DNA from: a virus
DNA: 38,533 nucleotides
Direction: 5' to 3' (one strand)
Virus record (IMG/VR): IMGVR_UViG_3300045988_077292
Coordinates: 1 to 38,533 of that record
A model generated the notes under the pieces. That model saw nothing but the letters and a program-made list of their open reading frames with translations, had not been told where the DNA came from and did not search any database. A program made the position numbers and the translations under genes. How positions within the stretch are numbered: the stretch's first letter is position 1; every line of letters starts with the position of its first letter. Below, in pieces: positions 17,816 to 24,969 of the stretch.

Positions 17816-19408
17816 TTATTTTCTTGGAACACAAAAGCAAAGCAAACTCTGTGTTATAAGAATTCTTGGTGCCGGTGACCCTACACCGTCAATTCTTATA
17901 ACTGTCTCGGAATCATCTGAGAAATCAAAGTCGCCACGGGGCGTGGGGTCAAGCAATGTCCACACTTTTATAAAGTCGGCATGGACTTCCACGCGGACAA
18001 CTATACTCAAAAGCAAATCATCGGTCTCTGGGGACCGGGCAAACATATTGAGAATTTCCCGCAGTTTATCTTCGGAGACTGACGCCCCGGAGACTTGGGC
18101 TTTAAGCTGGAGCATATCATGTTCCAGCTTTGCTTTTTCTGCTTCCAGCTCGGTGAGCTTGGCGGAGAGAGCGGGACTGTTCAGCCCGGACAACACAGCG
18201 TCAACGGCGGCAGCAATGCGCTTGTCAACTGCGCTGCGGCGGGTCACGAGCTGCTGCAGCTTTTCCCCGGCGCTGCCTTGAAGCTTGCTGCGCTCATCAC
18301 GCAGAATAGCCAAAAGATATTCGACATTGGCGGGAAGGCAAAACAGCTCGCGCATAGTGTCAAGCACGCGCACCTCCAAGTCGTCTACACGAATCGGCAT
18401 ACAATCACACTTGCCCTTGCGCTGCTTGGCGGAGCAAGCATAGTAATAGTACTTCCCTTTTGCCTTGGACACGACCATCGCACTTTTGCATTCTCCGCAG
18501 AACACTTTACCCTTGAGCGGGTAGCTGCGCACGACGGGCGCGCGCCCGGCTTGACTTCGTTTGTTCTCTTGCAGCTTGCGTTGCACACGCTCCCATGTAC
18601 ATCTATCTATGATGGCGGGTACGGCGTCCTCAACACGAATGACAGAGGACGCGGAAGCGTGAGAGTTGCGGCTTCCGTCCGGTCGCTTCTCGACTTTACC
18701 ATAGGTGAGAACACCGATATACTTTTCATTCTTGAGTAAGTCATGCAGAGAGTTTGTGCCGAAGGAGTTGCCGGACTTCGTGGTATACCCAGCTTCGTTG
18801 AGCGCGCGGATGATCTCTCTGTACGTCTTGCCCGATGCATACCACTTGAAAATACTGCGGACTATTTCAGCTTCAGCCTCGCACACGACGTAGCGCCCGT
18901 CGACCACGTTATAGCCCAGCGGGGGCTTGCCGCCTGTATGTCTCCCCTGCTGTGCCAGGAAGCGCATCTTCTCCGTGACCTTCTGCCGTGTCTGCAAAAC
19001 CCAGATCTGATTGAAGAGTGCCATGCTCCCCTCGGTCAAGAAGTTTGTGGGGTCGCGCAGGTCTCCGCCAACCATAGGCTGAGTGACGGAGACAACACGC
19101 ACACCAAGGCGCTCGACCTTTTCGCGGAAGTCAAACCACGCCGTCATCTTGCGAAACATACGGGACTGATCATAGATGACCACGGTGTCCGCACTGCCGA
19201 GAGAGAGCTGCCGCATCATGCGGCTGTATTCGGGGCGGTCATCCTTCATTCCGGAAACGGCCATGTCAGCAAACACATCAAGAACTGGCAAGCCGTTAGC
19301 GTCACACCAACGAGAGCATTTCACAACTTGAACTTCTATGCTGTCCTCATCCTGCCGGTCGGTACTATAACGCGCGAGTATGTACGCGCCATGATGAAGC
19401 GTGGTCAT
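17816..19408 (-). CDS. int: Large serine recombinase (integrase), 530 aa from ATG 19408
   Basis: YILARYSTDRQ is the catalytic Ser motif. A resolvase-like N-terminus is followed by a recombinase domain, a zinc ribbon (CGECKSAM...YYYACSAK...KCDC) and a C-terminal coiled coil. ATGA overlap with the upstream gene at 19405-19408. Confidence 0.9.
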   Translation of the reverse strand: MTTLHHGAYILARYSTDRQDEDSIEVQVVKCSRWCDANGLPVLDVFADMAVSGMKDDRPEYSRMMRQLSLGSADTVVIYDQSRMFRKMTAWFDFREKVERLGVRVVSVTQPMVGGDLRDPTNFLTEGSMALFNQIWVLQTRQKVTEKMRFLAQQGRHTGGKPPLGYNVVDGRYVVCEAEAEIVRSIFKWYASGKTYREIIRALNEAGYTTKSGNSFGTNSLHDLLKNEKYIGVLTYGKVEKRPDGSRNSHASASSVIRVEDAVPAIIDRCTWERVQRKLQENKRSQAGRAPVVRSYPLKGKVFCGECKSAMVVSKAKGKYYYYACSAKQRKGKCDCMPIRVDDLEVRVLDTMRELFCLPANVEYLLAILRDERSKLQGSAGEKLQQLVTRRSAVDKRIAAAVDAVLSGLNSPALSAKLTELEAEKAKLEHDMLQLKAQVSGASVSEDKLREILNMFARSPETDDLLLSIVVRVEVHADFIKVWTLLDPTPRGDFDFSDDSETVIRIDGVGSPAPRILITQSLLCFCVPRK

Positions 19409-19887
19409 CCCAGCCACCACGGGAGCGCGCACATGATGGCGGCGCGAGTGCTCACGCCGTAGTGCGTCTGCTCAATGATGGAGCGGCGGATCCATCCCAC
19501 ATTGGGGTTCAGCAGGTCAATAATAAAAAAGATGAGCACAAAGAAAACAAAGGTAACAAGCCCGGCAATGATACGCCCGTACAGCTCCGCGCGATGCCGG
19601 TCACGCCGCGCCTCTGCTTTCAGCTGCACAACAAGCGGGTCATTCGGCACGGTCACAGGCGGCGCGTCGCGGTGAGAGGCGCCGAGAATATCATCCACGC
19701 TGCCGCCGCAGACATTGATAATGTCGCACAGCAGAAAGAAAGATGGATTCTTCGGTTCCTCGCTGAGCACGCGCCGGACTGTCATGCCGGAGACCTCACA
19801 GCGCTTGGCAAGCTCATCGTAGCTCAGCCCGCTGGCAGAAACAAGCGCACGTATTCTCTCCATAACGGTCTCTTCCTTTTGCGTCAT
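19405..19887 (-). CDS. Membrane-anchored XRE-family HTH protein (160 aa), first gene of the integrase operon
   Basis: GGAGGAGGA RBS before ATG 19887. HTH SGLSYDELAKRCEVSGMTVRRVL, and C-terminal TM IIAGLVTFVFFVLIFFIIDLL. Confidence 0.7.
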   Translation of the reverse strand: MTQKEETVMERIRALVSASGLSYDELAKRCEVSGMTVRRVLSEEPKNPSFFLLCDIINVCGGSVDDILGASHRDAPPVTVPNDPLVVQLKAEARRDRHRAELYGRIIAGLVTFVFFVLIFFIIDLLNPNVGWIRRSIIEQTHYGVSTRAAIMCALPWWLG

Positions 19888-19930
19888 TTTATCCTCCTCC
19901 ATTCGTTTTTTAGATATAAAGATCCCGCCC

Positions 19931-19981
19931 ACAAAACTGTGCGGTAAAATTACAAAAGTGAGAGTTGTTTTCACAAAAGTG
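19931..19981. promoter_or_regulatory. Three ACAAAA(C/G)TG repeats phased at exactly 21 bp (19931, 19952, 19973): operator-like iterons
   Basis: Read directly in the divergent intergenic region between the integrase operon and the small + strand unit. Confidence 0.5.
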
Positions 19982-20076
19982 TAGGGTTATGCTGTGAACA
20001 AGTAAGAATGCTGTCGTTCATCAACTGTTCACAATATACACCAACAAGAAATATATGTCAAGGAGGAACTGAGAAA

Positions 20077-20199
20077 ATGTACCGATTGGATTGTAAGCTG
20101 GGCAGTATGCTGCCGTGCCGGTGCTGCTGCCGTCATTGGTGCTGCCCGGGATTTATGTGGAGACGAGGACGAAGCGGGCGGCGGACGCTGCCGCAGTGA
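20077..20199 (+). CDS. Possible 40-aa Cys/Arg-rich peptide (MYRLDCKLGSMLPCRCCCRHWCCPGFMWRRGRSGRRTLPQ)
   Basis: AAGGAGG at 20060-20066 sits 10 nt before the ATG. The composition is odd, so this may be non-coding. Confidence 0.3.
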   Translation: MYRLDCKLGSMLPCRCCCRHWCCPGFMWRRGRSGRRTLPQ

Positions 20200-20211
20200 G
20201 AGGAGAAAAGA

Positions 20212-20301
20212 ATGAGGCAACTGATAGAGGCGAAGCTGAACGAGGCAACCGAGGAACAACTGAGATACATACTGCTCATGCTGGACAACATGATAAAGTA
20301 G
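20212..20301 (+). CDS. Possible 29-aa helical peptide (MRQLIEAKLNEATEEQLRYILLMLDNMIK)
   Basis: AGGAG sits 6 nt before ATG 20212, and a strong terminator follows immediately. Confidence 0.35.
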   Translation: MRQLIEAKLNEATEEQLRYILLMLDNMIK

Positions 20302-20318
20302 AGCGGGAGAAAAGAGAG

Positions 20319-20355
20319 CCGCCCGGCGCATTAAGCGTCGGGCGGTTTTTTGTTT
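20319..20355 (+). terminator. Strong rho-independent terminator (overlaps the 3' end of the convergent repressor gene)
   Basis: CCGCCCGGCGC attaa GCGTCGGGCGG (11 bp with one G-U pair) followed by TTTTTTGTTTG. Confidence 0.8.
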
Positions 20356-20735
20356 GTATCAGTAGGGAGCTTTTGAAGAAGCTCTAGGAGTTTATCCCAC
20401 TGTTCAACATCTGTGTTACACATAAAATCAATGAGTTTCATTTCAAGCTCATTACCTTTGCCGCTGAGAAGCTTGGTCATGTAGGCAGTTATCTCAGCAG
20501 AGCGGGCAGCGTCCGGATCAAATGTTCCTGCACCATCGCGCAGCCAATCCTCATCAGCTTTGAACTCCCGGCAGATAGAACGAATGGCAACTTCGGACGG
20601 AACACGGACGCCGGATTCCCAAGTCGCAACCGTATTCTGCTTTACGCCAATGCGCTGCCCAAATTCGGCTTGAGAAATATGATGAGCTTTCCGCAAAGAT
20701 TTTATTCGCGCGCCGATTGAATCGACAACAATCAT
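20331..20735 (-). CDS. XRE-family repressor paralog 1 (134 aa)
   Basis: HTH ISQAEFGQRIGVKQNTVATWESG. The C-terminal domain ITAYMTKLLSG..ELEMKLIDFM..DVEQWDKLLEL is shared with the neighbouring gene. Confidence 0.8.
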   Translation of the reverse strand: MIVVDSIGARIKSLRKAHHISQAEFGQRIGVKQNTVATWESGVRVPSEVAIRSICREFKADEDWLRDGAGTFDPDAARSAEITAYMTKLLSGKGNELEMKLIDFMCNTDVEQWDKLLELLQKLPTDTNKKPPDA

Positions 20736-20774
20736 CCCCTTTCAAAATAAATACATCGCCAAGTGATTTTTATA

Positions 20775-20803
20775 TTGACAAACACGAGCTGAAATAATAT
20801 AAT
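20775..20803 (+). promoter_or_regulatory. Perfect consensus sigma-A promoter TTGACA-17-TATAAT, pointing antisense into repressor paralog 2
   Basis: TTGACA at 20775-20780, a 17-nt spacer, TATAAT at 20798-20803. It is flanked by the 9-bp inverted repeat TATATTGAC / GTCAATATA (20771-20779 and 20810-20818). Confidence 0.6.
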
Positions 20804-20831
20804 CACATCGTCAATATAAATATCACAATGT

Positions 20832-21236
20832 CTATTTATTCGGCGGTTTTTCTATTTCGGATATGTTCTTCGCGAGCGGGCGGATGAGTTCGAGGAGCTT
20901 GTCCCACTGGTCAACATCTGTCGCCGCCATGAAGTCTATGAGCTTCTCCTCCAGCTCGGAGCGCTCGCCGGAGAGGAGCTTGCCCATGTAAGCGGCGATC
21001 GCGTCCTTGCGCGAAAGCTCCTTGAACATGGGACCGCCCTCATCGCCGTGCCGCAGCCACAGCTCATTGACACCAAACTCACGGCAGATGTCTGAAATGG
21101 TGCGCTCACTGGGAGTACCGCCACTGACAAGTTTAGATACATACTGCTGAGAGACGTTTATTCTTTTTGCAAAGGCAGTCTTTGTAAGACCTGATTTATC
21201 AACTACCTCGCCTATGCGTTCGTTGATGGTGCTCAT
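20832..21236 (-). CDS. XRE-family repressor paralog 2 (134 aa from ATG 21236)
   Basis: RBS AAGGGGGTG. HTH LTKTAFAKRINVSQQYVSKLVSG. The C-terminus IAAYMGKLLSG..ELEEKLIDFM..DVDQWDKLLEL is paralogous to 20331-20735. Confidence 0.8.
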   Translation of the reverse strand: MSTINERIGEVVDKSGLTKTAFAKRINVSQQYVSKLVSGGTPSERTISDICREFGVNELWLRHGDEGGPMFKELSRKDAIAAYMGKLLSGERSELEEKLIDFMAATDVDQWDKLLELIRPLAKNISEIEKPPNK

Positions 21237-21258
21237 TCTAATCACCCCCTTTGTGCTG

Positions 21259-21287
21259 ACTATATCATGAGGAAAAAACTTTGTCAA
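21259..21287 (-). promoter_or_regulatory. Repressor (lysogenic) promoter TTGACA-17-TGaTATAGT on the minus strand
   Basis: The reverse complement of 21282-21287 is TTGACA, and of 21259-21264 is TATAGT with an upstream TG. It sits about 20 nt upstream of the repressor RBS. Confidence 0.65.
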
Positions 21288-21318
21288 GAAAAAACACAAC
21301 TAAGTGGTGAAAAAATGC

Positions 21319-21347
21319 TTGACAACGAAACTCACGCGTGGTAATAT
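21319..21347 (+). promoter_or_regulatory. Divergent early (lytic) promoter TTGACA-17-TGgTAATAT
   Basis: TTGACA at 21319-21324, a 17-nt spacer ending in TGG, TAATAT at 21342-21347. It is back-to-back with the repressor promoter. Confidence 0.65.
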
Positions 21348-21392
21348 ACAACCAAGGCGTAACAAAATAATACTCAGTAAGGAGTAAAGACA

Positions 21393-21548
21393 ATGAATTT
21401 TGAAGAGCTTGTAAAACTCGTTGTAGGCAACAAACATCTGAGAAGTAGGTGGGACGTTGTAAGTTACCTAATCGGATATAAAAAGATGATAGACGAAACA
21501 GACTGGGAACACATCGAACAAATGTATGTGGATGGTCTCATAGAGTGA
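21393..21548 (+). CDS. Small early protein (51 aa), first ORF after the early promoter
   Basis: TAAGGAG RBS 8 nt before ATG 21393. Its stop abuts the stop of the convergent membrane-protein gene. Confidence 0.45.
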   Translation: MNFEELVKLVVGNKHLRSRWDVVSYLIGYKKMIDETDWEHIEQMYVDGLIE

Positions 21549-22358
21549 TTAGTCATAATCACCGGATGAATAGAAAAGTATCTGAGAGATACCGTGCAGA
21601 CCGTCAGCAAGAAGAGAGTAGAGTTCATCAAAGTCAAGAGCCGCGCCGGTCTCCATACAAGCTTCAAGTAGTTCTTTTCCCTCACGAATGGTATTTAGAT
21701 ATTCATCTATATCCGATAGAAACTCACCCCGATTCCATTCAAAGTCATCTGAGCTATCGACCAGTCCACGCCTAAAACCAGCGCTGTACCCAACGCGGAA
21801 TGAATCGCTCGCTATATCAATGTCTTCACTGGAAAGTTCTAATGCCGGAAACATTTTACCACGCTGATATTCAATCCCCGCGTAAAAGCCAAAGTCAAAG
21901 CCAGAAGAATAGCCATCGGTATATGACAAATGTTCGCGATATTCCATATCGTCATCTGTGTACAAGCCATCATCTAAGGCTGCTTCGTATCCTTCGTTGC
22001 GTGCAGCGGATCTGATTTCACTGATTTCGTCGGCGGTATAGAACAGCTTACCATTAAAAAAACAGATAAACATGGAGAGCGCAAGCAGAACCAGAGAGAC
22101 AGCGAAGATAGATTCAGCTGGATTTTCTTCCGAGTTCTCAGTGTCGCAAAGGCTGTGGCTTACAATCAATGCGAGGACAGAAGTGACACCTAAAGAAAGA
22201 CCAATGATAATTTTAGAAGACACGTCGAAGTGAGACAATACAGCGTTATTGAGGCTAAAGGCACCACCAAAAATGAGAATGTAGAGGAGAATAAACGACC
22301 AACCTTTTGCGAATGCAAACGCAATGTGAATAAAGAATGCAGATAGTTTTTCTTTCAT
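21549..22358 (-). CDS. Multi-pass membrane protein with an acidic cytoplasmic domain carrying GYxxGFxxG repeats (269 aa from ATG 22358); prophage moron, candidate exclusion/abortive-infection factor
   Basis: About 4 hydrophobic helices in the N-terminal 115 aa. The C-terminus has GYEAALDDG, GYSSGFDFG and GYSAGFRRG. The region is visibly AT-rich compared with the rest of the genome. It has the same orientation as the repressors. Confidence 0.7.
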   Translation of the reverse strand: MKEKLSAFFIHIAFAFAKGWSFILLYILIFGGAFSLNNAVLSHFDVSSKIIIGLSLGVTSVLALIVSHSLCDTENSEENPAESIFAVSLVLLALSMFICFFNGKLFYTADEISEIRSAARNEGYEAALDDGLYTDDDMEYREHLSYTDGYSSGFDFGFYAGIEYQRGKMFPALELSSEDIDIASDSFRVGYSAGFRRGLVDSSDDFEWNRGEFLSDIDEYLNTIREGKELLEACMETGAALDFDELYSLLADGLHGISQILFYSSGDYD

Positions 22359-22402
22359 AGCGAAAAATCCTTTCAAAAAATGTAATGGAGGCGAGCGGGA
22401 TG
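22356..22402. repeat. Bidirectional leader cassette copy 1: CATAGCGAAAAATCCTTTCaAAAAATGTAATGGAGGCGAGCGGGATG
   Basis: The left end is the reverse-complement ATG plus leader of the minus-strand gene. The right end is GGAGG-8 nt-ATG of the + strand gene. It recurs at 23001-23046. Confidence 0.85.
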
Positions 22403-22831
22403 AAATTTAATTATGAGCGTTTGAGCAAAAAGATTAAAGAAAAATATCGAGCGCAAGATGCGTTCGCGAAAGTGATTGGGATAACACGCACATCGCTATC
22501 CTACAAGCTAAACGGGAAAAGCTCTTGGCACGCGGATGAGATGTACAAGGTATGCAAAGCGCTCGACATACCGCTGAAAGAAATCCCACGGTATTTTTTT
22601 GAGCCCAAAGGCTCAGTGGCAGAGGCGCAAAGCGCGAGGATGCGAGAACTGAGCAGAGGAGAAGCAGCCGCAGCGGCGCTGACGATGCTGCTGGGTTACA
22701 CGAGGGACATCAACCAGAGGCGCAGACTTGAGTACGGCGACAGCGGGGACGCGGTGCTGGCGTTCAATGAAGAAGCGCTGGAGGAAGCGCTGCGCTGCGT
22801 GGAACTGGTCAACGATTCCGAATGCTATTGA
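22400..22831 (+). CDS. XRE-family HTH early regulator (Cro/antirepressor-like, 143 aa from ATG 22400)
   Basis: GGAGG sits 8 nt before ATG 22400. HTH AQDAFAKVIGITRTSLSYKLNGKSSW. Confidence 0.7.
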   Translation: MKFNYERLSKKIKEKYRAQDAFAKVIGITRTSLSYKLNGKSSWHADEMYKVCKALDIPLKEIPRYFFEPKGSVAEAQSARMRELSRGEAAAAALTMLLGYTRDINQRRRLEYGDSGDAVLAFNEEALEEALRCVELVNDSECY

Positions 22832-23003
22832 AAATCTCGAAAGCCCTGTTCCGGCAGACTGTGGTGCATTCTTTATAGCATGGTTGATAAGTATCACACC
22901 CAGCAAAAGCATAGCGATCATCCAGCGGATAAGGCAATAGGTAGACATCAACGTGATTGAAATGAACAGGGCAGAGCACGTTTATAGTGACGGTCTTTTT
23001 CAT
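22809..23003 (-). CDS. Small 4-5 Cys protein B (64 aa)
   Basis: It starts with the conserved leader GAAAGGATTTTTCGCT-ATG. Its Cys spacing is like that of 23457-23693. The 3' end overlaps the convergent HTH gene by 23 nt. Confidence 0.45.
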   Translation of the reverse strand: MKKTVTINVLCPVHFNHVDVYLLPYPLDDRYAFAGCDTYQPCYKECTTVCRNRAFEIFNSIRNR

Positions 23004-23046
23004 AGCGAAAAATCCTTTCTAAAAATGTAATGGAGGCGAGCGGGTG
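23001..23046. repeat. Bidirectional leader cassette copy 2 (1 mismatch and a 1-nt deletion that converts the ATG to GTG)
   Basis: catagcgaaaaatcctttctaaaaatgtaatggaggcgagcgggtg, read directly and compared with copy 1. Confidence 0.85.
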
Positions 23047-23227: not shown

Positions 23228-23245
23228 ATGGAGGCGAGCGGGATG
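23228..23245 (+). repeat. Right-half leader copy (ATGGAGGCGAGCGGGATG) in front of gene 23243
   Basis: 18-nt identity with the right halves of copies 1 and 2. Confidence 0.8.
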
Positions 23246-24538: not shown

Positions 24539-24969
24539 TGGGAGCACATTACAGAACCTGCGCAACAGCACAGACGAAAGAGAAGAAGACCAAGCTGCCG
24601 ACGTGCGCCAAGGAGGGCGAGGAACAGGCGACGCTGTTCCATTGGGCGGCAATGCAGCAGAGCGAGTACCCGGAGCTGGCACTGCTGTTCCATATTCCGA
24701 ACGGCGGCAAGCGCGGCAAGGCGGAGGCGGCACGCTTCAAGATGGAGGGGGTCAAGGCGGGTGTGCCAGATCTCTTCCTCCCCGTTGCTATCGGCAATCG
24801 GCACGGGCTGTTTATCGAGATGAAGCGTGTGGTCGGCGGCAAGGTCAGCAGCGAACAGGTGGAGTGGGGCGAACGGTTGACAGAGCAAGGGTACGCATGG
24901 ATAATGTGCCGCGGCTGGGAGGAGACGGCGACCATGATCAAGCGGTACCTGGACGGGCTATGGGAATGA
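24538..24969 (+). CDS. VRR-NUC domain nuclease (143 aa)
   Basis: EEQATLFHWA...LFHIPNGGKRGKAEAARFKMEGVKAGVPDLFLP...GLFIEMKR...VSSEQVEW...L..QGY fits the VRR-NUC (PD-(D/E)xK) signature. Confidence 0.8.
   Translation: MGAHYRTCATAQTKEKKTKLPTCAKEGEEQATLFHWAAMQQSEYPELALLFHIPNGGKRGKAEAARFKMEGVKAGVPDLFLPVAIGNRHGLFIEMKRVVGGKVSSEQVEWGERLTEQGYAWIMCRGWEETATMIKRYLDGLWE

Follow-up and report, generated by a model that had tools for sequence, protein, structure and literature searches.

Tandem repressor genes with a predicted convergent promoter between them suggest two stacked immunity regions in a putative Oscillospiraceae temperate phage

Most of the detail known about the choice between lysis and lysogeny comes from a few phages of the Proteobacteria and from phages of Bacillus and lactococci. 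In coliphage 186 the convergent transcripts of the switch overlap by 62 bp of non-coding DNA, while in the prgQ/prgX region of the enterococcal plasmid pCF10 the overlap is about 220 nt, and interference and antisense RNA both feed bistability. In the second immunity region (immI) of phage P22, the sar promoter lies in the gap between the tandem regulatory genes arc and ant and fires antisense to them, giving a short terminated RNA which extends over the downstream gene's ribosome-binding site. In P2-like phages repression of the convergent lytic promoter relieves interference (PMC5001618), the mycobacteriophage Mcgavigan has acquired a second, Bxb1-like repressor shown experimentally to give heterotypic immunity (PMC12700041), and the 29-residue protein AimX is an antirepressor of the phage repressor AimC (bioRxiv 10.1101/2025.11.23.689978). 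Here we describe a locus in the viral record IMGVR_UViG_3300045988_077292 of IMG/VR, of which the full stretch of 38,533 nucleotides was analysed (the window): two tandem genes for XRE-type repressors, p1 and p2, are separated by 96 bp which carry a consensus promoter, P_as, directed antisense into p2. Our preferred reading, to which we give a probability of roughly 0.55, is that a temperate phage of the Oscillospiraceae carries a serial stack of two immunity cassettes, and that p1 represses the convergent P_as. A tandem-repressor arrangement with an antisense promoter was not found described in the literature, in a search that was not exhaustive.

The preliminary description of this DNA had presented p1 (20331-20735) and p2 (20832-21236) as tandem minus-strand genes for XRE proteins with a conserved C-terminal domain and divergent helix-turn-helix (HTH) regions, and this was borne out in full. 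Both open reading frames (ORFs) are present as described, both products exceed the Pfam gathering cut-off of 23 bits for HTH_3 (42.7 bits for p1, 43.4 bits for p2) and match PHROG families of transcriptional regulators or repressors (1e-15), and the two proteins are 45% identical overall (BLASTP 2e-34), with 37% identity in the HTH half vs 53% in the C-terminal half. Their equal length had been remarked upon as well; both are indeed 134 residues long, but the match is incidental, as orthologues in the p2 position have 132-135 residues and some p1 orthologues are called at 140 residues, from an upstream ATG. The p1 head is of the type ..GVKQNTVATWESG.., and its C-terminal domain forms a subtype of its own, with ADEDWLR, a two-residue deletion and a KPPDA end. 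Pfam searches gave no Peptidase_S24 match in either protein, and because the C-terminal domain moreover consists of three helices in about 55 residues, p1 and p2 do not belong to the self-cleaving class of lambda CI and LexA.

P_as (TTGACA-17-TATAAT, 20775-20803, plus strand) matches the sigma-70-type consensus at 12 of 12 positions and is aimed into the 3' end of p2, with a predicted start at about 20810. To the right of p2, two further promoters stand back to back: P_p2 (TTGACA-17-TATAGT with a TG extension, 21287->21259, minus strand, 11/12, predicted start at about 21252), the promoter of the p2-p1 transcript, and P_lyt2 (TTGACA-17-TAATAT with TG, 21319-21347, plus strand, 10/12), the rightward early promoter of the p2 switch. 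P_as and P_p2 face each other over about 442 bp which hold the entire p2 gene, with p1 lying beyond P_as. Four sites in the 38.5-kb window reach at least 11/12 at a 17-bp spacing where 0.06 are expected, namely P_as, P_p2, a minus-strand site (20061->20033) before the integrase gene and its XRE neighbour, and a plus-strand site in the early region (24877-24905), and this excess is an argument for taking matches of such quality as real promoters in the host. Shuffling of the 96-bp gap (29% GC) produced a 12/12 match in 0.04% of 20,000 shuffles. No minus-strand promoter of 9/12 or better was found in the gap, no terminator is predicted between p2 and p1, and none is predicted on the plus strand between 20810 and 21993. 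ORF51 (21393-21548, plus strand), the first rightward early gene, can be reached from P_lyt2 and by any read-through from P_as; it has no Pfam or PHROG match, and its N-terminus resembles that of the first early gene of the related locus L060 (loci are numbered with L throughout), found in an Oscillospiraceae metagenome-assembled genome.

The perfect plus-strand promoter, the back-to-back pair, the lack of a convincing minus-strand promoter in the gap and a geometry like that of phage 186 had all been proposed beforehand, and all held: the P_as match is not due to chance, as it recurs at 11-12/12 in three diverged lineages while the spacer changes, there is no credible p1 promoter, and p1 lies beyond a promoter which faces its own transcribing promoter, with no other promoter or terminator in the gap. 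Weak minus-strand candidates such as TTGTGA-18-GATTAT (8/12) fall under the scan threshold, and the TG extension of the one named is not kept between lineages, L051 having CGT where the window has TGT. The possibility that the gap contains an old p1 promoter with an 8-bp spacer deletion (TTGACG-9-TATTAT) was dropped, since the gap is colinear with the lytic-promoter half of related switches and this TTGAC belongs to the operator O_a described below.

The 3' ends of the two genes differ in a corresponding way. The codons for the KPPDA end of p1 form one arm of a terminator hairpin (20313-20351, called on both strands, with 17 pairs on the plus strand and a weaker 5-pair call on the minus strand at 20337-20320), which would serve the p2-p1 transcript and the convergent transcript of two small ORFs. 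The same is seen in single-repressor relatives, and the coding of a terminator arm probably explains the conservation of KPPDA in p1 and in many single repressors. In p2 the end is KPPNK and only AAACCGCC of the terminator stem is retained (20832-20850), and with this half-stem alone p2 has no terminator of its own. With the p1 promoter and the p2 terminator both lost, p1 must be expressed by read-through from P_p2 across P_as.

As in the 186 and P2 switches, a strong promoter in the lytic direction faces the promoter that transcribes the repressor, p1 lies beyond it and a putative repressor site covers it; unlike in those phages, the convergent pair is layered on the lambda-style divergent switch of p2, and arose by stacking. 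Among the Pfam, PHROG and PDB matches of p1 there was no homology to 186 CI or P2 C, and the resemblance is one of circuit geometry, not of descent. The likeness to pCF10 is looser: there too transcription of an HTH repressor gene converges on the promoter which its product represses, but prgQ/prgX controls plasmid conjugation and involves peptide pheromone sensing of the RRNPP type and a small terminated antisense RNA, none of which is seen here. With sar of P22 the locus shares a promoter in the gap of tandem regulatory genes which fires antisense, whereas the P_as transcript leads away from the p1 ribosome-binding site, lacks a predicted terminator and covers the upstream gene.

The sequence around P_as contains what may be the binding sites of p1. 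The inverted repeat flanking the promoter had been given as 9 bp; it is in fact 17 bp long with one mismatch, its arms GTGATTTTTATATTGAC (20763-20779, containing the P_as -35 hexamer) and GTCAATATAAATATCAC (20810-20826, positions +1 to +17 of P_as) being 30 bp apart. The arms are GTGAT-N7-TTGAC units of which the outer GTGAT and TATTGAC blocks are invariant across lineages, while the centres vary without compensation (16/17, 15/17, 17/17 and 14/17 pairs in four variants), a pattern that fits protein sites better than an RNA stem. A 13-bp putative operator, O_a (ATCAC-ATC-GTCAA, or TTGAC-N3-GTGAT on the other strand, 20802-20814), overlaps the last two bases of the -10 hexamer and the start site of P_as and is invariant in all tandem lineages. 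A copy with one mismatch, O_b (ATCAC-AAT-GTCTA, 20822-20834), overlaps the p2 stop codon; L051 and L057 retain only its ATCAC half. In the window O_a is the sole exact copy of the motif, and of four copies with one mismatch one lies in the gap and the other three (13843, 18192 and 37958) are at chance level, so matches to the putative p1 operator beyond chance level are confined to P_as.

The motif follows the type of repressor head. Every one of the 20 loci with an NTVATWE[SA]G head has an exact TTGACNNNGTGAT (TTGAC-N3-GTGAT), and no other locus does (0/86; 595 kb in total, with about one occurrence expected by chance), the 20 loci representing some five or six independent lineages; it is absent where the same recognition helix continues as ..AQYEMG. 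In single-repressor relatives the motif is found at the -35 of the repressor promoter (P_rep) and just past the -10 of the early lytic promoter (P_lyt). The combination of a p1-type head with TTGAC-N3-GTGAT at a back-to-back P_rep and P_lyt occurs in the single-repressor loci L049/50, L056, L060 and L062/63, and this lends in silico support to the earlier suggestion that the two repressors provide two immunity specificities, as the head and operator motif of p1 make up the primary switch of other phages. A further GTGAT half-site upstream of the P_as -35 is present in all tandem lineages and not in the single-repressor relatives, which suggests that it was gained as an adaptation after stacking.

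The tandem state was then compared among relatives. Orthologues of p1 at 67% identity (P0003; L051-L054) and 59% identity (P0004; L057) also stand in tandem, with gaps of 95-96 or 85 bp, and a tandem pair of genes with this C-terminal domain was found in only 14 of 106 loci from four collections, all of them encoding a p1 orthologue; the single-repressor relatives include L050, L055, L056, L060 and L062. P_as reads TTGACA-17-TATAAT in the window and in L051, and TTGACA-17-TATATT with a TG extension in L057, while the 17-nt spacers of the three tandem lineages differ largely or wholly (AACACGAGCTGAAATAA, AACAGGACGAGAGATAA and GGCAAAAAGAAAAGTGA). At P_as the sixth position of the -35 is A throughout, and the equivalent base by the other arm is G, A or T. 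Such a picture is what one would expect of a promoter under selection. A blastn search with 19300-22900 gave no match among 50,697 GenBank phages, scans of GTDB genomes and metagenomes with a p1 profile yielded only single-repressor relatives at 52% identity or less and no new tandem lineage, and the 41 IMG/VR loci with p2 relatives contain one family member each and are uninformative on the tandem state.

The single-repressor relatives also indicate where P_as came from. In those with a p1-type head (..GVKQNTVATWE[SA]G..), P_rep (TTGACA-17-TATATT or TATTAT) stands back to back with P_lyt (TTGACA-17/18-TATTAT), which in L060 leads into the divergent early operon. The P_as region is colinear base for base with P_lyt of L050, L060, L062 and L056, running through TATTGACAAAC, the spacer, the -10, ATCAC-N3-GTCNA, 7-8 nt and ATCNC, and of the ancestral switch the half with P_rep has no counterpart in the tandem gap. 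P_as therefore appears to be the orthologue of the ancestral early lytic promoter, left over when two immunity regions were stacked. In the simplest history, p2 and its switch would have come as one cassette and been attached immediately downstream of the operators at a lytic promoter of the p1 type, with loss of the p2 terminator and the p1 promoter. In L055 a single repressor with a p2-type C-terminal domain ends in KPPDA and is followed by the DNA found downstream of p1, and this shows that tandem and single states interconvert via recombination at the common 3' end.

In contrast to p1, the p2 gene is exchanged in part. At least 14 public contigs carry p1 with an identical protein sequence, downstream of differing p2 variants, and 10 carry an identical p2; across those contigs p1 and the 96-bp gap are constant except for one base in L043. 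Relatives have no fewer than four different p2 heads. Within the clade of the window three unrelated ones (MSTINERIG.., MDTLGSRIEQ.. and MHSRIKQLRS..) are found on a near-identical C-terminal domain (C-terminal halves 96-98% identical), and a fourth (MCDIGERVKQ..) occurs in the L051 clade on a C-terminal domain that is 97.5% identical to that of L051 p2 and 62.5% to that of the window. Nucleotide (blastn) and protein alignments place the mosaic breakpoint in the PSERTISDICREF segment of p2 (21089-21110, codons ~43-50) at the end of the HTH domain. By blastn the block 19405-21110 is 97.5% identical to L043, which differs in its p2 head and early region and has a tyrosine integrase, and to the right of the breakpoint the DNA is unrelated to that of relatives with other heads. 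Repeats of the ACAAC type between and over P_p2 and P_lyt2 are kept with the same head type (L051, L058) and replaced with other heads (L043, L044, L053), and since these repeats track the head, p2 behaves, judging by its variation, as the specificity-determining, primary immunity repressor of a lambda-style back-to-back switch, with a swappable head on a conserved three-helix domain. By the same comparison p1, the gap and the genes downstream behave as one conserved cassette, in which p1 is the second repressor.

With this anatomy the locus could work as follows. In a lysogen the p2-p1 transcript would supply both proteins, p2 holding P_lyt2 and p1 holding P_as. With p1 present, O_a and the flanking half-sites would be occupied, P_as would be shut and the p2-p1 transcript undisturbed, so that p1 would indirectly sustain its own expression and that of p2, much as 186 CI does by repressing pR. 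With p1 absent, either in a fresh infection or upon its inactivation, P_as (12/12 and presumably stronger than P_p2 with 11/12) would fire antisense through p2 and over P_p2, lowering the synthesis of p2 and p1 by collision or occlusion, and would add rightward transcription toward ORF51 and the early genes, locking in the lytic choice. When bound in the path of read-through p1 may also act as a roadblock which limits its own synthesis, and in trans it should repress incoming phages of the L050, L056 and L060 types, giving the second immunity specificity. We consider it likely that P_as is a real promoter controlled by p1; that interference with p2-p1 is the function under selection is more tentative, and we would lean slightly against it if pressed.

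Several points weigh against this scheme. The overlap of about 442 bp contains a whole repressor gene, as opposed to the 62 bp of phage 186. The three tandem lineages are few, and loci are near-identical inside each. The conserved hexamers coincide in part with elements of the repeat (TTGAC in the arm, and the final two positions of the -10 in O_a), and their conservation could partly reflect protein sites; O_b and the upstream half-site are full operators in the window lineage only. The promoter rules were assumed to be sigma-70-like for an Oscillospiraceae host and may not be those of the host, the assignment of which rests on L060 and on the source names of homologues. In all lineages the Shine-Dalgarno sequence of p1 (AAAGGGG, AAAGGAG or AAAGGAGG; 20733-20746 in the window and the equivalents in L051, L057 and L058) abuts the start codon (ATG, or TTG in L057) without a spacer; this suggests that initiation of p1 translation is deliberately weak or unusual, and with such poor spacing p1 levels may be very low. 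Binding by p1, activity of P_as, interference and cross-immunity, that is every functional step, are inferred from sequence; the anatomy, the conservation, the co-occurrence of head and operator and the evolutionary origin are what the analysis shows.

A first alternative is that p1 is a heterotypic-immunity moron captured from another phage, and that P_as and its operators are an inert, permanently repressed relic without a role in the phage's own decision. The gap is clearly derived from another immunity region, there are potential targets in single-repressor phages that share its head and operator, and the second repressor of Mcgavigan is dispensable for lysogeny and needed for heterotypic immunity (PMC12700041). 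As in Mcgavigan, a second repressor of foreign specificity stands beside the phage's own, its cognate operator type forming the primary switch of other phages; unlike in Mcgavigan, it is paralogous, adjacent and apparently co-transcribed, and comes with a retained, cognate promoter of consensus sequence that points at the gene of the first repressor. A useless consensus promoter in that position should decay fast, whereas P_as is at or near consensus in three lineages with diverged spacers and flanks, and is nearer to consensus than the ancestral-type P_lyt with its TATTAT. The loss of the p1 promoter and p2 terminator, tying p1 expression to passage across P_as, and the added GTGAT half-site in all tandem lineages are equally at odds with a relic, and we regard this explanation as unlikely, if worth keeping in mind.

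Much the same standing is given to the proposal that P_as chiefly serves the early lytic genes as another promoter placed in series with P_lyt2, each of the two being under its own repressor and together forming a double lock which allows induction if either repressor fails, with the antisense effect on p2 being secondary. The orthologue of P_as is an early lytic promoter, transcription begun there could extend to ORF51 and further as no plus-strand terminator is predicted on the way, and rightward early transcription in this phage group already crosses an antisense gene (21549-22376). Such transcripts would however begin with a non-coding antisense leader of about 580 nt without a conserved ORF or ribosome-binding site, and p2 at its operators would stand in their path; the proposal is in any case compatible with the preferred reading, since interference with p2 and p1 would follow from the same transcripts. 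Two other products of P_as were considered and rejected. A short antisense RNA is not supported, as there is no plus-strand terminator, the first 151 nt fold no better than shuffled sequences (z = +0.40) and no Rfam family was matched, a scan at a permissive threshold giving only two matches at chance level; and a coding role was discarded because the antisense ORFs lack ribosome-binding sites and have the look of mirror images of the conserved sense frame.

The C-terminal domain common to p1 and p2 raises the question of whether the two proteins interact. A confident AlphaFold2 model of p2 built with 58 homologues (predicted local distance difference test score, pLDDT, 86) has a five-helix HTH domain followed by three further helices, and superposition of the modelled HTH onto 434 Cro and P22 c2 gives root-mean-square deviations of 1.3-2.0 A. 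The best full-length matches in the PDB are SinR (with SinI, 1b0n), RghR, DdrO and the phi106 repressor with AimX (9sf2), at E values of only ~3e-3 and driven by the HTH; even the top match, SinR 1b0n_A (E = 3.2e-3, TM 0.41), is weak. For the C-terminal domain alone (model pLDDT 81), Foldseek, PDB profile and Pfam (E<=10) searches gave nothing usable, with no match to SinI in Pfam, and we regard it as an uncharacterised three-helix domain, presumably with a role in oligomerisation. Its third helix (20385-20420 in p1, 20892-20927 in p2) is matched between partners in each genome and differs between lineages, being QWDKLLEL in both proteins of the window, KYWYMLLDIM in both of L051 and QW[KQ]LLL[ED][VI]I in both of L057, and C-terminal domains are 53-57% identical within a genome vs 42-45% for p1/p2 pairs across lineages. 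In L051 a patch of 23 identical nucleotides in helix 3 indicates gene conversion, whereas in the window the helices match despite five synonymous differences in 12 codons, which indicates selection, and mixed p1-p2 oligomers or a common partner protein are possible on this evidence.

One elaboration, which we think quite unlikely, is a single cooperative device in which mixed p1/p2 oligomers would bridge the gap operators and the p2 operators about 500 bp away, looping out p2; a single trigger, for which the 29-residue product of the small ORF at 20212-20301 would be a SinI- or AimX-like candidate, would free both sites, and P_as would be an interference latch making the lytic decision irreversible. 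If true, this would be a natural circuit in which heteromeric repressors govern both a divergent switch of the lambda type and a convergent one of the 186 type.

Less probable still is that p1 and p2 form a repressor/antirepressor pair, an option which had been raised in the preliminary description and which found no support beyond the partner-matched C-terminal domains; such a pair would act through mixed oligomers in the manner of SinR and SinI. The lineage-specific helix 3, kept in the window over silent divergence, is what such a pair would lead one to expect, and the nearest full-length folds come from XRE repressors that have a helical domain for oligomerisation and small proteins as antagonists; SinR and AimC share with p1 and p2 an N-terminal 434-Cro-like HTH and a short helical C-terminal domain, and ORFs for 29 and 40 residues adjoin the repressors here. 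The fold match is however weak and HTH-driven, the C-terminal domain alone has no detectable structural or sequence relative, no arbitrium genes are seen, both proteins have a complete and well-scoring HTH, each gene has its own, distinct set of conserved operator-like repeats beside it, and the identical patches in L051 favour gene conversion as a simpler cause of the matching. Very improbable, finally, is that the 17-bp repeat is an RNA hairpin in the p2-p1 mRNA (for processing, stability or translational control of p1) with a promoter match incidental to AT-rich arms: in the sense RNA the arms do pair into a stem of 17 bp around a loop of 30 nt (-20.9 kcal/mol, z = -1.96), and at one site, arm position 10, the window and L051 differ on both sides of the stem at once, but the fold is marginal (9/200 shuffles fold equally well) and has no Rfam match, the centre mismatches are uncompensated with only the outer GTGAT and TATTGAC blocks fixed, as for protein sites, and a hairpin would not account for a conserved -10 within the loop.

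With p1 as repressor of a convergent P_as, the locus would be a natural and conserved case, in phages of gut Oscillospiraceae, of a lambda-style divergent switch with a 186-style convergent promoter nested behind it, and the path to it is visible: two immunity regions were stacked, one promoter and one terminator were lost, and one half-site was added. Should P_as be active, it would illustrate how heteroimmune phages can recombine into a new circuit topology, beyond a mere swap of specificity, and how a prophage can hold two immunity specificities on a single transcript. The TTGAC-N3-GTGAT operator and the breakpoint of the head swap offer handles for experiments and for the annotation of immunity groups in gut viromes.

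The remainder of the window has the look of a temperate siphovirus-type genome. The late genes lie on the plus strand up to about 17.8 kb and are followed by a serine integrase gene (17816-19432, minus strand; Resolvase, Recombinase and Zn_ribbon_recom domains), the gene for a 160-residue XRE protein, p1 and p2, and the rightward early genes. The integrase module is swapped among close relatives, being of the serine type in the window, L058 and L056 and of the tyrosine type in L043, L055 and L060, with a breakpoint exactly where the XRE gene ends (19405). This gene (19405-19887, minus strand) overlaps the start of the integrase gene, has its own 11/12 promoter (20061->20033) and three ACAAAAGTG-like repeats in its leader (19931-19981), and is conserved beside both serine and tyrosine integrases; with its hydrophobic C-terminal segment (..IIAGLVTFVFFVLIFFIIDLL..), its product is probably membrane-anchored.

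Between this gene and p1, two small plus-strand ORFs with good Shine-Dalgarno sequences (20078-20199 and 20212-20301) run convergently towards p1 and end at the shared terminator. They encode a Cys-rich peptide of 40 residues (MYRLDCK..CRCCC..CCPGF..LPQ) and one of 29 residues (MRQLIEAKLNEATEEQLRYILLMLDNMIK), and both are kept in every lineage, including the single-repressor relatives. The 29-residue product, which has the size of AimX, is a candidate small antirepressor; its weak alignment to helices 2-3 of the repressor C-terminal domain was not significant (hhalign probability 2%, P = 0.02).

Within the rightward early operon, between ORF51 and a gene for a DUF739 Cro-like protein, lies the antisense ORF 21549-22376 (minus strand), the product of which has 269-275 residues and several hydrophobic segments and matched no Pfam or PHROG family. 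Early lytic transcription must cross this ORF head-on, and it may be a moron expressed in the lysogen, for instance for superinfection exclusion. The DUF739 gene itself (22385-22831) is bracketed by a direct repeat of 47 bp (22353-22399 and 22998-23044, 98% identical), the last 15 bases of which, continuing as ATGGAGGCGAGCGGGATG.AA, recur at 23228. The repeat looks like the scar of an insertion or duplication of a module in the early region, and relatives have different content between its copies.

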